Shown piece by piece: positions 11,227 through 60,275 of a DNA stretch of 64,000 nt (positions are counted from its first letter, which is position 1; the number at the start of each line of letters is the position of its first letter). Source of the stretch: Christensenellaceae bacterium (GTDB taxonomy: Bacteria > Bacillota > Clostridia > Christensenellales > UBA1242). Below the pieces are notes generated by a model. That model did no database searches, was not told the DNA's origin, and worked only from the letters and a program-made list of their open reading frames with translations. Made by a program: the position numbers and the translations under genes. The stretch is taken from positions 229,758-293,757 of the forward strand of contig JAISKJ010000003.1 of assembly GCA_031260975.1 (NCBI GenBank), written 5' to 3'.

Positions 11227-11496
11227 ATGTTTATAAAAATTCAGCTGTTTGCCCACAAAAAAGGCGGAGGCAGCAGCCGTAATGGCAGAGACAGTGAAAG
11301 CAAGCGTTTGGGAGTAAAGACAGGCGACGGCACTCTTGTCAAAGCCGGAAATATTTTGGTGCGCCAGCGCGGCACAAAAATGAAGGCCGGAGCAAACGTT
11401 GGGGTAGGCAGAGACCACACCTTGTTTGCGCTTAAAGACGGCGTTGTGAAGTTTGAGACTAAGGACGGCGGCCGCAAATTTGTATCAATAAAATGA
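11227..11496 (+). CDS. rpmA: 50S ribosomal protein L27 with Prp-cleaved N-terminal extension
   Basis: [31 protein letters not shown]. The propeptide ends in F-A and the mature start is AHKKG. Confidence 0.95.
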
Positions 11497-11515
11497 TGCT
11501 ATACTTGTCACGTTC

Positions 11516-11596
11516 TAGAGGTAGCAGTTGTGTCCGCTGTGTAGTCATGTATCTTTGTATACACACCCTACACATCGTCCACAACTGCTACCTCTA
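11516..11596 (+). other. Long imperfect hairpin downstream of rpmA (terminator-like but no T-run)
   Basis: A 17-bp perfect stem TAGAGGTAGCAGTTGTG / CACAACTGCTACCTCTA, a 5x5 internal loop, a 7-bp stem TGTGTAG/CTACACA, then a 5-bp apical stem. Confidence 0.45.
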
Positions 11597-11726
11597 TTAT
11601 ATGGCAATTATATCGTCATTTTTTCTTTTAACAAGTATTCATTAATGAATATCTTGATATGATTTGAGGCTTTTAGCCTCTTTTTTAATTCCGTGGGAAT
11701 TTCTGGAGTATAGCTAGAGATTTTTC

Positions 11727-20565: not shown

Positions 20566-22382
<1,817 letters not shown>

Positions 22383-32597: not shown

Positions 32598-32735
32598 AAA
32601 AAATACCTCCTTTTTTAAATATATGAAAACTGTTTTTTAATTGTTACAAAGGAGGGTTGGGCAGCGCATATATATATCCGTTCACTTAAAAATGGGTATT
32701 TACAAAGTGCCCAAAAGATGATAATATATAAGTAC

Positions 32736-34078: not shown

Positions 34079-34270
34079 GCGGGTATGCACCTGCCGGCGA
34101 TATTGGTCAAACGTGAAAACCTAATTTAATGTAAAAATAGATAAATGTGTTTTATCTACTTTGTGGTCTGCAGAATTTTTCAGTGATACTTATTGCACCG
34201 CTATAATAGAGGAGAAAAGAGGGAAAGGGTGAGGTATTTTTATGATTTGTGCATGTGCACAAAATTTTTT

Positions 34271-34317
34271 AAAAGTGGTCAAAAGTGGTTGAAAGTGGTC
34301 AAAAATTATGCTACAAT
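34271..34317 (+). promoter_or_regulatory. Pmra promoter overlapped by three MraZ-box direct repeats
   Basis: AAAAGTGGTC AAAAGTGGTT GAAAGTGGTC, i.e. AAAGTGG with 3-nt spacers and a 10-bp period (34271-34300). TTGAAA (34289-34294), 17-nt spacer, extended -10 TGcTACAAT (34309-34317). Confidence 0.6.
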
Positions 34318-34423
34318 ATCCGTAACGTCAGAATAGGCCCTTTCTATTTTAGGTCAGTTCTGTCAAGAAGCGTAAATTGTGAGGGTTTTGTCTCAAGTAA
34401 ATGAGCGCTTTAAAAGGAGAGTT

Positions 34424-34855
34424 ATGTTAAGCGGAGAGTTTAAGCATGTGGCCGATGAAAAATTCAGACTGCGCCTGCCGCCTAAGTTCAAAAAAGAACT
34501 AGGGTCAGGTTATGTTGTCACGCGCGGAAACGACGGGTGTCTGTTTGTGTTTTCTCACGAACAGCTCGAAGCACTTCTTAACAAAACTTCTTCAATTCCA
34601 ATGTTCAGTAGCAATCTCCAACAGCCGCTGAGGCTTTTGTATTCATCAGCCTATGAAGTTGCTGAGGACAATCAGGGGAGGTTCCTGCTTCCGCAAAGCT
34701 TGAGAGACGCGGCAGCCATCAAAAAGGAAGTATATTTTGTGGGTGTTGGCACACGTGCCGAAATTTGGAGCGCCGAGCGGTGGGAGGAGTATAAAAAACA
34801 GGGTAGCGTAAACTTTGACGATATAGTAGAAGAGCTGGGCAAATATGGAATTTAG
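34424..34855 (+). CDS. mraZ: Transcriptional regulator MraZ
   Basis: MLSGEFKHVADEKFRLRLPPKFKKEL... with a duplicated SpoVT/AbrB-like half (DNQGRFLLPQSLR). The start is set at ATG 34424 (SD AAAGGAGAG) rather than GTG 34379. Confidence 0.9.
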   Translation: MLSGEFKHVADEKFRLRLPPKFKKELGSGYVVTRGNDGCLFVFSHEQLEALLNKTSSIPMFSSNLQQPLRLLYSSAYEVAEDNQGRFLLPQSLRDAAAIKKEVYFVGVGTRAEIWSAERWEEYKKQGSVNFDDIVEELGKYGI

Positions 34856-38292: not shown

Positions 38293-38402
38293 CTTAAACT
38301 GTGAATAACAAAATTGTGCACTTCAAAAAATTTACAGCGTTCAAGAAGTAATAAAAATGTAAATTTTTTGTGCATTAGCAATTTTGTTATTCACAGTTTA
38401 AG
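38293..38402. repeat. 110-nt near-perfect inverted repeat (long hairpin) between the PBP gene and murE
   Basis: A 24-bp perfect stem CTTAAACTGTGAATAACAAAATTG / CAATTTTGTTATTCACAGTTTAAG, a 5-bp stem TGCAC/GTGCA, a 12-bp perfect stem AAAAAATTTACA / TGTAAATTTTTT and a 21-nt apical loop. No flanking T-run. Confidence 0.6.
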
Positions 38403-57395: not shown

Positions 57396-57756
57396 AAATG
57401 GCGAGAGTGTGTACATGTATCTTTTATTAAAGTTGTGGCTGCTTGCATGCGGGATTTAAAATTGTTCATTCCAAAAATTTTACAGAACCAAGGCCCGTCT
57501 GATGGTTGAAATGTAAAATTTTGTGTGCACTCACAATTTCAAAACTTACATTGCAGCCTGCATATTGACTACAAGATTGTTCATGACTGATCACTCCACC
57601 ACCTGAGGGAGAAAAGGGGCGGATTATATGGTTTGCATAAATGTTTAGAGACATATATACATATTTGACGGATGAGGATAGAAGAAATGCGAGATATCAA
57701 GCTTGCAGGCATTTGTAGAATTATCGGTAAGAAATTTTAAATAAAAAGGAGTTCCT

Positions 57757-58485
57757 ATGGGAGTGGAGTTGTGGAAGTATGTTGTCATTATAATTTTTGG
57801 TTACTTAATGGGCAACATATTTTTTGGAAGGATAATTGCAAGGATAAAAAGGATTGACTTGTCAAGGGGTACAGGCAATCCGGGTACCATGAATATGCTG
57901 CGAAACTATGGCATGGGTATGGGAATGCTTACACTTGTTCTTGATGCTCTTAAGGGGGCAATTCCGGCAGTTGTTGGGTTCTATTTATTCAACGATTTTA
58001 ACAACATTCAGCATTTGGGCCAGGCTTTAAGCGACGCCAATGTGCGTTGTTATCTAGGGCTTTATATTGGAGGACTGAGTGCTTTGGTTGGGGCTGTTTA
58101 TCCGGTGTTTTATAAGTTTAAGGGCGGCAAGGGTGCGGCTACAATATACGGTATGTATCTGGTTGCCGATTGGAAGCCGGGGCTCATAATTTTTGGAGTT
58201 GGCATCTTGTGGCTGCTGCTTATGGACTACGGTTCGCTGGCATCTTTCACCATGGTGACAATCTATACCGTTGTGCAGGGCATAAACGCCTATGGACATA
58301 TTGCCATCAGCATAATTTTATTTGTGATATTTGCGCTTATGTGGTTTGCTTTCAGGTCCAATATATTTAGACTTCTTATAGGCAAAGAAAACAAGGTAAA
58401 CTTCATTAGAGGACTTAAGAAACTTAAAAAGAAACGGCTTGAGAAAATTGAGGCTAAGGCGCGCAACTCAAATGAGCTGGGATAA
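57757..58485 (+). CDS. plsY: Acyl-phosphate:glycerol-3-phosphate acyltransferase PlsY
   Basis: GTGNPGTMN (variant of GSGNxGATN), LDALKG and KGGKGAAT. It has an extra Lys-rich C-terminal tail. Confidence 0.85.
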   Translation: MGVELWKYVVIIIFGYLMGNIFFGRIIARIKRIDLSRGTGNPGTMNMLRNYGMGMGMLTLVLDALKGAIPAVVGFYLFNDFNNIQHLGQALSDANVRCYLGLYIGGLSALVGAVYPVFYKFKGGKGAATIYGMYLVADWKPGLIIFGVGILWLLLMDYGSLASFTMVTIYTVVQGINAYGHIAISIILFVIFALMWFAFRSNIFRLLIGKENKVNFIRGLKKLKKKRLEKIEAKARNSNELG

Positions 58486-58523
58486 GTTAGTATGGGTTGT
58501 GCATATATCTATCATTTCACTAA

Positions 58524-58683
58524 GGCTTCGACCATTACGTGGTCTGCAGAAACGTTCAGTGATAGATGTGCGCACAACCCTGAGTATAGAGAATAGACGA
58601 GGCTTCGGCGCTACGCGCCTGCAGAAATGTTCATTGATAGCTACATAAACAATTCTGAATATAGAGAATAAGCGGGGGCTTCG
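58524..58683 (+). repeat. Two tandem copies of a ~77-bp intergenic repeat, each starting with a small hairpin
   Basis: GGCTTCG anchors at 58524, 58601 and 58677. Each unit has a 5-bp hairpin, then TGCAGAAA(C/T)GTTCA(G/T)TGATAG, a variable 15 nt, then TGA(G/A)TATAGAGAATA. Confidence 0.7.
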
Positions 58684-58740
58684 AAACCTTTTTATGAAAA
58701 GAGATGAGTGACTGATGCTTGCCGCTTTTTTCATGTTTTG

Positions 58741-58770
58741 GCATAACTAAAATCGGCGCAACATATACAT
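58741..58770 (+). promoter_or_regulatory. Possible sigma-E type promoter of spoIVA
   Basis: GCATAAC (58741-58747), 14 nt, CATATACAT (58762-58770). This loosely resembles the mother-cell sigma-E consensus (ATA... / CATACA-T). It is a hand match only. Confidence 0.3.
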
Positions 58771-58796
58771 TTATTAGCTTTTATTAGGAGGAGAGT

Positions 58797-60275
58797 ATGA
58801 AGTCATATAATGTATATGAAGATATAGCAAAACGGACAAACGGCGATATTTATGTGGGTGTAGTAGGACCTGTCAGGTGCGGTAAGTCCACATTTATTTC
58901 AAAGTTTGTAAATACATTGGTTTTGCCAAACATAAAGGATGAATTCAGCAAAACAAGAGCAATTGATGAATTGCCGCAGAGTGCTGACGGAAAAGCAATC
59001 ATGACCACTCAGCCCAGATTTGTGCCCAACGAGGCGGTGGAGATAAGAGTAAAAGACAGTGTAGACCTAAAAGTTCGCCTGGTGGACTGCGTAGGTTATG
59101 TTGTGGCGGGAGCCACAGGACATACTGACGGCAGCAAACCAAGACTTGTCAAAACTCCGTGGAGTGATACGCCTATGCCTTTTGAACAGGCGGCAGAGAT
59201 TGGCACCAAAAAAGTTATCACTGAGCACAGCACAATAGCGGTGGCTGTTACCTGTGACGGAAGTTTCACTGACATTGAGAGGCAGAGTTATATTCAGGCA
59301 GAAGAAAGGATAGTGAAAGAGCTTAAAGCCACTAAAAAACCATTTGTGCTTGTTTTGAATACCGTAAAACCCCAGCATCCCGATACGCTTAATCTTTTGG
59401 ATACACTTAAAGCTAAGTATGAAGTACCCGTTCTGGCAATGGATATAGCCAACCTGAACACTGAAAACATAGATGAGGTTTTTGAAGGTATTTTGGGTGA
59501 GTTTCCACTGACATCTCTTCAGGTCAAAATGCCGCAGTGGATGCAGGCGCTTCCGTTTGATGATGAGATAATAAAAGAGGTGGTGCTTGAAGCTAAAAAT
59601 CTGATTGGGAACGTTGGCAAAATTGGTGAAATTGATACTGCTAGGGTAGCGTTTGAGAGCAGCGGATCATTTGAACCTCTCAGCATATCACAAATCAGGA
59701 TGGGTGAAGGAGTTGTGAGCATTGAGGTTGTACCCAAGCCCGACTTGTTTTATAAGGTGCTTTCTAAACAGTGCGGACAGGAAATTTTGAGCGACTTCCA
59801 TCTGGTGAGTTTCTTAAAAAAGCTTTCGCACGCAAAGGTTGAGTATGACAAAATAAAGGACGCACTTTTGCAGGTGGAGGAACATGGCTATGGAGTGGTC
59901 AGCCCCAGACTTGACGAAATGAAGCTTGAGGAGCCTGAGATTGTGAAGCAGGGCTCAAGATATGGGGTTAGGCTTAAAGCTTCGGCGCCTAGCTTGCATA
60001 TGATGAAGGTAGATGTTGAAACGGAGATAAGTCCGATTGTAGGCACTGAGCAACAGAGCGAGGATATAGTGCGTTTTTTGCTAAAAGAATTTGAAAGCGA
60101 CCCTAAAGGGTTGTGGGAAACAAATATGTTTGGAAAAAGCTTACACACTCTCGTGAACGAAGGACTTAATAACAAGCTTGTTCAGATGCCGGTCGAGGCA
60201 CAGAAAAAGATGCGCAGGACACTTGGACGCATCGTAAACGAAGGTAAAGGCGGAATTATTTGTATATTGTTATAA
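58797..60275 (+). CDS. spoIVA: Stage IV sporulation protein A (coat basement-layer ATPase)
   Basis: MKSYNVYEDIAKRTNGDIYVGVVGPVRCGKSTFISKF, 492 aa, ends GGIICILL. Confidence 0.95.
   Translation: MKSYNVYEDIAKRTNGDIYVGVVGPVRCGKSTFISKFVNTLVLPNIKDEFSKTRAIDELPQSADGKAIMTTQPRFVPNEAVEIRVKDSVDLKVRLVDCVGYVVAGATGHTDGSKPRLVKTPWSDTPMPFEQAAEIGTKKVITEHSTIAVAVTCDGSFTDIERQSYIQAEERIVKELKATKKPFVLVLNTVKPQHPDTLNLLDTLKAKYEVPVLAMDIANLNTENIDEVFEGILGEFPLTSLQVKMPQWMQALPFDDEIIKEVVLEAKNLIGNVGKIGEIDTARVAFESSGSFEPLSISQIRMGEGVVSIEVVPKPDLFYKVLSKQCGQEILSDFHLVSFLKKLSHAKVEYDKIKDALLQVEEHGYGVVSPRLDEMKLEEPEIVKQGSRYGVRLKASAPSLHMMKVDVETEISPIVGTEQQSEDIVRFLLKEFESDPKGLWETNMFGKSLHTLVNEGLNNKLVQMPVEAQKKMRRTLGRIVNEGKGGIICILL

Follow-up and report, generated by a model that had tools for sequence, protein, structure and literature searches.

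The tandem array in the spacer between plsY and spoIVA of this Christensenellaceae genome is probably an intergenic repeat that is specific to the lineage and dispersed, with units of about 75 to 77 nt; it is probably not a conserved regulatory RNA. As in a dispersed-repeat family in the broad sense, non-coding copies of the unit occur in several unrelated spacers, and the repeat is restricted to one lineage, being absent from relatives. An earlier note on this DNA had described two tandem units, each opening with a small hairpin, together with a long enclosing stem. The features that it described are present and are beyond chance, while its reading of them as products of selection on structure fared less well, as discussed below.

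Organisation of the plsY-spoIVA spacer

The gene order plsY-spoIVA is widely conserved across this bacterial order. In the window (the whole stretch of 64,000 nucleotides that was analysed) the spacer between the two genes is 311 nt long (58486-58796). The array starts 8 nt past the plsY stop codon and takes up 204 nt, in agreement with the previous description of it as filling most of the spacer. The SpoIVA protein encoded in the window is identical to MDR0850226.1. A Logan contig from SRR14710919 yields no variation, because it is 100% identical to the window over 15.2 kb. The features of this region are as follows.

57757-58485, + strand: plsY (glycerol-3-phosphate acyltransferase), the gene 5' of the array; open reading frame with Pfam PF02660
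58489-58493, no strand: AGTAT, left copy of a 5-bp direct repeat around the 87-nt palindrome, read from the sequence
58494-58580, + strand: 87-nt imperfect palindrome with left arm 58494-58516 and right arm 58558-58580, enclosing small hairpin 1
58524-58600, + strand: repeat unit 1 (77 nt), consisting of GGCTTCG, hairpin 1, CTGCAGAAA, the right arm and TGAGTATAGAGAATAGACGA
58530-58544, + strand: small hairpin 1, GACCAT-TAC-GTGGTC, 6 pairs including one U.G, -5.5 kcal/mol
58601-58676, + strand: repeat unit 2 (76 nt), the faster-diverging copy, with a decayed version of the right arm
58607-58619, + strand: small hairpin 2, GGCGC-TAC-GCGCC, 5 G-C pairs, -7.1 kcal/mol
58677-58683, + strand: third GGCTTCG anchor, where the stretch corresponding to the plsY terminator of relatives (decayed here) begins
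58693-58735, + strand: A-U-rich hairpin followed by GUUUUGG, the sole remaining terminator-like candidate between plsY and spoIVA, -13.9 kcal/mol, z -2.5
58741-58769, + strand: putative sigma-E-type spoIVA promoter, GCATAAC (58741-58747), 14 nt, CATATACA (58762-58769)
58786-58791, + strand: ribosome-binding site AGGAGG of spoIVA
58797-60275, + strand: spoIVA, the gene 3' of the array; Pfam SpoIVA_ATPase, SpoIVA_middle and SpoIVA_C

The three GGCTTCG anchors pointed out previously (58524-58530, 58601-58607 and 58677-58683) do delimit tandem units of 77 and 76 nt. A repeat search returned the two units as a direct repeat of 59 nt (58544-58602 versus 58619-58677) with 75% identity and a spacing of 75. 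Local alignment of unit 1 with unit 2 gave a score of 46, as compared with 13.0 ± 2.3 (maximum 28) for shuffled sequences, none of which reached 46 in 500 trials. Tandem Repeats Finder made no call on the array, as would be expected because there are just two copies at 75%. The array is not a CRISPR array, as the earlier note had recognised: its units of 76-77 nt are contiguous with zero spacers between them, whereas in CRISPR arrays, repeats of 28-49 nt are separated by unique spacers about as long as the repeats.

Both small hairpins were found where they had been placed (58530-58544 and 58607-58619); folded with short flanks and compared with shuffled sequences, neither is unusual (z -1.7 for hairpin 1 and z -0.6 for hairpin 2). 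The long inverted repeat also exists (58494-58514 and 58560-58580; 21 nt, 86%), forming the described long stem around hairpin 1. The 87-nt palindrome has a folding energy of -40.0 kcal/mol (z -7.4) on the + strand and of -34.7 kcal/mol (z -6.0) on the - strand. Unit 2 by itself does not fold significantly (z -0.4). On the + strand, the 23 pairs of the palindrome arms comprise 19 Watson-Crick pairs, 3 G.U pairs and 1 mismatch; on the - strand, there are 1 G.U pair and 3 mismatches. Inferring a strand from the G.U pairs of the long stem was considered and rejected, as a 3:1 split is not significant. The AGTAT at the left of the palindrome has a right copy at 58583-58587, the extended copies (TTAGTAT and TGAGTAT) being alike at 6 of 7 positions. 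This flanking repeat is a candidate target-site duplication, too short to be told from chance.

Two other derivations of the unit were tried and rejected: a duplicated plsY 3' end, for which a 13-nt match (GAGGCTAAGGCGC versus GAGGCTTCGGCGC) exists but the alignment score equals the shuffle mean; and an integron attC site, for which inspection revealed arms (GGGTTGTGC...GCACAACCC) on both strands in the reverse order of attC core sites. An IS200/IS605-derived element with two end hairpins is not favoured either, as the stems differ in sequence and there is no TnpA or TnpB gene nearby.

The motif xxATAxx-14-CATAxxxT occurs at the position of the spoIVA promoter in 29 of the 33 sequences tested. 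Its final T is an A in the window, L204 and L206, and L019 does not have the motif. The motif is in keeping with a promoter of the sigma-E type. For spoIVA of C. difficile, a mapped sigma-E promoter has been reported, and for sigma-E promoters of that species an ATA -35 motif and a -10 element that sigma-K shares (PMC3789822). Since the promoter lies at 58741-58769, the array is upstream of the conserved spoIVA promoter and 3' of the plsY stop codon, outside the spoIVA leader. The earlier note had implied a link to spoIVA control; the location of the array 5' of a conserved promoter and its absence from relatives speak against such a link. At the same promoter in L007, L009-L015 and L020, a conserved TTTTGACAAAA or TTTTGACGAAA element stands about 5-20 nt 5' of the -35 motif. 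Some of its copies fit the TGNCGAA form of the Spo0A box, and the element is absent from the window and the closest relatives.

Comparison with relatives and further copies of the unit

The closest relatives found are L204 and L205, whose SpoIVA is 89% identical. Their plsY-spoIVA spacer of 120 nt consists of a canonical terminator (AAAAGAGGTGTAAGCCTCTTTT plus a T-run) and then the promoter, and it is an array-free site. From about 58666 on, the window aligns with the terminator of these relatives and the region downstream, while the roughly 190 nt before this point have no counterpart. The array stands in the same place as the relatives' intrinsic plsY terminator, directly after the plsY stop codon, and its 3' end aligns with that terminator and its T-run. 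Neither the array nor its words were found in any of 19 GTDB relatives with a syntenic plsY, and profile searches with the unit gave no match in 726 kb from 86 related loci. Because the counterpart in the spacer is missing in all relatives examined, we regard the array as an insertion specific to this lineage.

For the whole window, Rfam 15 returned nothing at the gathering score, and for the spacer, with E up to 10, it returned weak chance matches only, hairpin-shaped microRNA-type families being the best; no tRNA genes were found in the window. Of the marks expected of a conserved cis-regulatory RNA, neither conservation at the same position nor a match to a curated RNA family was observed. 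The matches of two viral pattern scans for the unit were chance matches with no similarity past the pattern. Two metagenome scans had 0 and 16 matches, the 16 being likewise chance matches that align over 23-36 nt, little beyond the core.

Between plsY and spoIVA, a consensus terminator scan of 58000-59200 found no canonical site, and the identical scan does detect the plsY terminator of L204. The old terminator position (58664-58700) folds at -4.0 kcal/mol (z +0.4), as compared with -8.2 kcal/mol (z -2.4) for the terminator of L204. An intrinsic terminator consists of a G+C-rich stem followed by a U-tract, whereas the array has no such tract, there being no U-tract directly 3' of any of its hairpins. 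The hairpin at 58693-58735 was missed by the consensus scan.

Another relative, L018 (3730-4000), carries its own unrelated set of G+C-rich hairpins inserted in a plsY-spoIVA spacer of 270 nt, and the spacer seems to take insertions repeatedly. In L206 (1-239), one of two relatives at 89%, plsY-spoIVA synteny is lost and a divergently oriented gene appears to begin upstream of the spoIVA promoter.

The search for further copies covered the 64-kb window plus 6 kb of this genome, in which four units at three loci were seen. Besides units 1 and 2, the following matches were obtained.

34150-34224, + strand: c3, a degenerate third copy of the unit, aligning to 58539-58602; nhmmer E 1e-3 with the two-unit profile
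57617-57693, + strand: c4, probably a fourth copy, more degenerate than c3 and located in the der-plsY spacer, aligning to 58534-58600
32658-32686, + strand: c5, a borderline and tentative match confined to the left arm, with 23 identities in 29 positions; score reached by 3 of 500 shuffles, nhmmer E 1.5

In a window-wide scan of both strands, c3 stands out clearly, scoring 23.5 (mean 9.3, sd 1.6). It is placed between the terminator of the preceding gene and the mraZ promoter, and it has no significant fold (z +0.4). The score of the der-plsY spacer against the array, which defines c4, was reached by 1 of 1000 shuffles; c4 is among the top windows of the window-wide scan, yet it is not cleanly apart from the tail. 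With a four-member profile, no further copy was obtained in the window, where the next best E was 0.83, and none in relatives. A search of the window and the related loci for GGCTTCG, a variable hairpin and CTGCAGAAA in succession, with one mismatch tolerated in each flank, gave no further instance that has a hairpin. All unit copies share the orientation of the flanking genes.

The copies c3 and c4 both align to unit 1 between the loop of its small hairpin and its end; they share the inner and right part, and no other copy with both arms was seen. As no other copy has the left arm or the whole palindrome, the array departs from a classical element, which would carry terminal inverted repeats at each of its sites. 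Neither the ORFs examined in the window nor the genes called in L081 and L082 include a transposase. A 22-nt core, CTGCAGAA-NNN-TTCAKTGATA, has the same letter at each of its 17 fixed positions in unit 1, unit 2 and c3, and this invariance could be a sign of constraint.

The der-plsY spacer, in which c4 lies, is 361 nt long (57396-57756), while in 54 related loci it ranges from -23 to +23 nt (median -3), the genes adjoining or overlapping. It is a mosaic of inserted repeats, containing c4 (57617-57693) and a segment at 57458-57540 that is akin to a palindrome at 38293-38402 (score reached by 0 of 1000 shuffles). Because this spacer has expanded and holds both c4 and a second palindrome family, the spacers of this genome appear to be being filled by inserted repeats. 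The palindrome at 38293-38402 is 110 nt long with perfect 24-nt outer arms (-43.8 kcal/mol, z -10.6). It is located 2 nt past the stop of a penicillin-binding-protein gene and 30 nt before murE, in a division and cell-wall cluster. Another palindrome, of 133 nt (11490-11622), has 55-nt arms at 80% (-62.1 kcal/mol, z -11.3) and a sequence unrelated to the other palindromes; it begins at the last codons of rpmA (L27, 11227-11496), with a canonical-looking terminator next to it at about 11667-11690. The array shows no similarity to either of these two palindromes, and kinship with them was rejected.

These copies bear on a purely local origin of the array, according to which the palindrome formed in place by template switching and was then duplicated by slippage, c3 and c4 being a short shared motif or chance matches. 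Template switching is documented for perfect hairpins and multi-base matched changes (PMC8794818), the palindrome would have been near perfect when duplicated (see below), and neither a second copy with both arms nor a transposase turned up in the window. However, the c3 match extends over about 60 nt, far past the core, whereas the 16 chance matches to the core in metagenomes extend over only 23-36 nt; c4 lies in a spacer of 361 nt that measures at most 23 nt in 54 related loci; and a second, unrelated palindrome family is found at two loci as well. We consider the local origin unlikely, although it is still to be reckoned with because both arms were seen in no further copy within the window and the additional 6 kb.

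The mraZ region near c3 shows repeats of its own. The direct repeats AAGTGGTCA, AAGTGGTTG and AAGTGGTCA (34265-34320) overlap a TTGAAA-17-TACAAT promoter just 5' of mraZ (34379-34855), and we presume that they are probably the MraZ operator. Between c3 and this promoter there is a perfect 8-2-8 palindrome, TTTGTGCA-TG-TGCACAAA (34243-34262). The word TTGTGCA is not enriched in the window, with 18 found versus 17.5 expected.

Divergence of the units and selection on structure

Units 1 and 2 differ by 17 transitions, 3 transversions and 3 indels. The earlier note had read the small hairpin as maintained by compensatory changes, with three of the five pairs differing and pairing fully kept. Pairing is indeed kept, but the count of differing pairs depends on the alignment. 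In a more parsimonious alignment of the stem, one internal C-G pair is deleted, two A-T pairs become G-C by double transitions and one U.G pair becomes C-G, all of the substitutions being transitions. RNAalifold, run on the two units, placed the gaps asymmetrically and missed the hairpin, and for this reason the stem pairs were tabulated by hand. Under a uniform substitution model, the probability that pairing is retained is 0.007-0.011. When five random transitions were placed on the stem, all pairs were kept in 21% of the simulations, and all were Watson-Crick in 4.7%. Given the observed substitution spectrum, the transition-only null is the relevant one. As there are just two informative sequences, no covariation statistic has power here.

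At the same time, the differences cluster in the small stem: they affect 5 of 10 stem positions versus 0 of 17 flanking positions (Fisher p 0.003), so the flanks, described before as conserved, are identical between the units. In addition, two symmetric 1-nt deletions keep the small stem in register. Because the changes concentrate in the stem and the deletions are symmetric, we conclude that some process "seeing" the hairpin acted on it, either selection or hairpin-templated mutation. The latter, by template switching, can make perfect hairpins and multi-base matched changes, with no need of selection on RNA (PMC8794818). In the other copies of the unit, the stem is reduced to 4 weak pairs in c3 (-0.6 kcal/mol) and is gone in c4.

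These results suggest that a structured cis-acting RNA or small RNA selected for its fold, for example a protein-binding or processing module that sets spoIVA expression, is an improbable description of the array. Both small hairpins do survive five substitutions and two indels in the stem, at the low probability that the uniform model assigns to this; the long stem is slightly better on the + strand; and every copy is oriented as its flanking genes. However, with transition bias the chance of retention rises to 0.21, or 0.047 with all pairs Watson-Crick; the G.U pairs do not significantly favour either strand; the array is bracketed by neither a promoter nor a terminator and stands 5' of the spoIVA promoter; and both its absence from this position in all relatives and the failure of the Rfam searches argue against a selected fold, as does the state of the hairpin in c3 and c4. 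The claim of selection on structure is therefore a weak one, given the absence from relatives, the lack of an Rfam family and the 21% retention by chance with transitions. The earlier note had itself named a lack of other copies, or a hairpin not conserved among them, as what would count against it, and this is largely what was found, the further copies being partial and the stem weak or lost in them.

A related possibility is that the unit is a functional module which was spread and then co-opted by this lineage, the array having replaced the canonical terminator and acting as an RNA or protein-bound insulator that keeps vegetative der-plsY transcription out of spoIVA, a gene specific to the mother cell. 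The parts of such a module would be the invariant 22-nt core and the adjoining hairpin, whose stem changes yet stays paired. We assign little probability to this.

It is still less probable that a transcription factor controls the spoIVA promoter by binding to the array as tandem DNA sites, with blocks about 76 bp apart. Perfectly identical blocks (GGCTTCG, CTGCAGAAA and TATAGAGAATA) do adjoin strongly diverged segments. The candidate factor motifs, for example a 0A-box-like TTCGnC in the GGCTTCG anchors or a SpoIIID-like ACA motif, are of low information. Resemblances of the conserved blocks to Spo0A-box, SpoIIID and IHF-like motifs are likewise of low information and absent from relatives. 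Moreover, the blocks are missing upstream of spoIVA in all relatives despite the conserved promoter, and the unit also occurs upstream of mraZ and in the der-plsY spacer, loci that are unrelated to sporulation.

Finally, the reading of the array as a small protein gene, either an 88-codon ORF on the - strand (58468-58734), which crosses the array in a single frame, or a 58-codon ORF on the + strand (58472-58648), is close to refuted: the spacing of the 59-nt block (75 nt) is a multiple of three, the - strand ORF is open through both units and the + strand ORF is called a hypothetical protein by JGI and Logan, but among 5.8 billion proteins the + strand ORF matches itself alone and the - strand ORF has no match (no word-sharing candidate gave a score, so that the ORF itself is apparently not in the collection), no Pfam family scores above threshold, no ribosome-binding site precedes the - strand ATG, and the final part of plsY and the + strand ORF overlap in different frames.

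Possible history of the array and its likeness to known repeats

On the favoured reading of the array as an inserted, dispersed repeat, its history may have been as follows, the order of events being inferred. A copy of the unit with an inverted partner would have come to adjoin the plsY stop codon, within the plsY terminator or beside it, and partner and unit together would have made a near-perfect palindrome. A 77-bp segment would then have been duplicated in tandem between two GGCTTCG(A) microhomologies, one in the element and one in the terminator region, the latter presumably represented by the third anchor (58677-58683). Duplication between short direct repeats is suggested because three identical anchors bound the two units, which is the pattern expected of it. 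Thereafter, the units would have diverged, chiefly by transitions, and the array may have been decaying since.

The arms provide some information on the state of the palindrome at that time. At the 10 sites where the right-arm copies differ, the left-arm partner agrees with unit 1 at 6, with unit 2 at 3 and with neither at 1; the simplest reading of this agreement is that the palindrome was almost perfect when it was duplicated. The left arm matches the presumed ancestral right arm, in which no more than 1 of 23 positions would have been mismatched. Since the duplication, the arm of unit 1 would have changed at 3 sites, 2 of which give G.U pairs, and that of unit 2 at 6; unit 2, having no pairing partner, would thus have changed about twice as fast in the arm region.

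The array is probably transcribed as part of the plsY 3' untranslated region. If so, the long stem-loop would occupy the place of the relatives' canonical terminator in the transcript. Any function that the array has today would be a general one, for instance in blocking 3' exonucleases or in stopping read-through into the spoIVA promoter, which is specific to the mother cell; the array would not switch spoIVA in particular. It may have been co-opted as a transcript-end structure or insulator, and it may also be without any function.

If the main reading is true, the array has little bearing on the control of sporulation. It would instead document that an uncultured Christensenellaceae genome contains small intergenic repeats belonging to two or more unrelated families; that such repeats can expand spacers which are essentially fixed in relatives; and that they can displace a terminator ahead of a developmentally regulated gene. 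The array would matter more if it were a true working barrier between the housekeeping operon and spoIVA. There is also a caution for the reading of DNA from its letters: matched changes in a hairpin present in two copies are weak evidence when nearly all of them are transitions and templated mutation is possible.

Several known repeat systems resemble the array, and it would appear to be similar in kind to BOX, MITE and REP-type elements, although membership in none of these classes can be demonstrated. BOX elements of Streptococcus pneumoniae (boxA-boxB(n)-boxC) are transcribed with neighbouring genes (PMC3184786). Like them, the array is short, non-coding, lineage-restricted and located in spacers, and it is modular, with an inner unit whose number of tandem copies varies and outer parts that pair with each other as a long stem-loop. 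However, BOX elements have zero sequence similarity to the array, number over 100 copies and are believed to move with the help of an insertion sequence, whereas the array amounts to four units at three loci within 64 kb and has no known mobilising enzyme.

The 87-nt palindrome is in the size range of MITEs, such as Correia elements of Neisseria, RUP of S. pneumoniae, ERIC of Enterobacteriaceae and bcr1 of the Bacillus cereus group. As with these elements, the palindrome has terminal inverted arms, would form a long RNA hairpin, lies in a spacer and has an empty site in a sister species (PMC3184786), and it is located within or beside transcription units (PMC3184786). Of the usual marks of a MITE, terminal inverted repeats and an empty orthologous site in L204 and L205 were observed, while several dispersed copies of the whole element, with both arms, were not seen within the 64-kb window. 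The copies of the array elsewhere share the inner and right part and not both arms, and there is no known parent insertion sequence.

The REP and BIME sequences of Enterobacteria are, like the array, small hairpin-forming repeats clustered in spacers 3' of genes. Such clusters can affect mRNA stability, and REP sequences have been hypothesised to act in transcription termination (PMC3184786, PMC3733652). REP units differ from the array in being 20-40 nt long, G+C-rich and present in hundreds of copies, none of which was seen for the array. They also often have a GTAG or CGTC tag tied to a dedicated transposase, whereas the array has neither.

A further observation concerns another part of the window. 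A 519-aa protein of the Cpn60_TCP1 family (E 1e-60) is encoded on the - strand at 20566-22125. We take it to be of the thermosome-like type and not an ordinary GroEL, a type of Cpn60 that is uncommon in bacteria.
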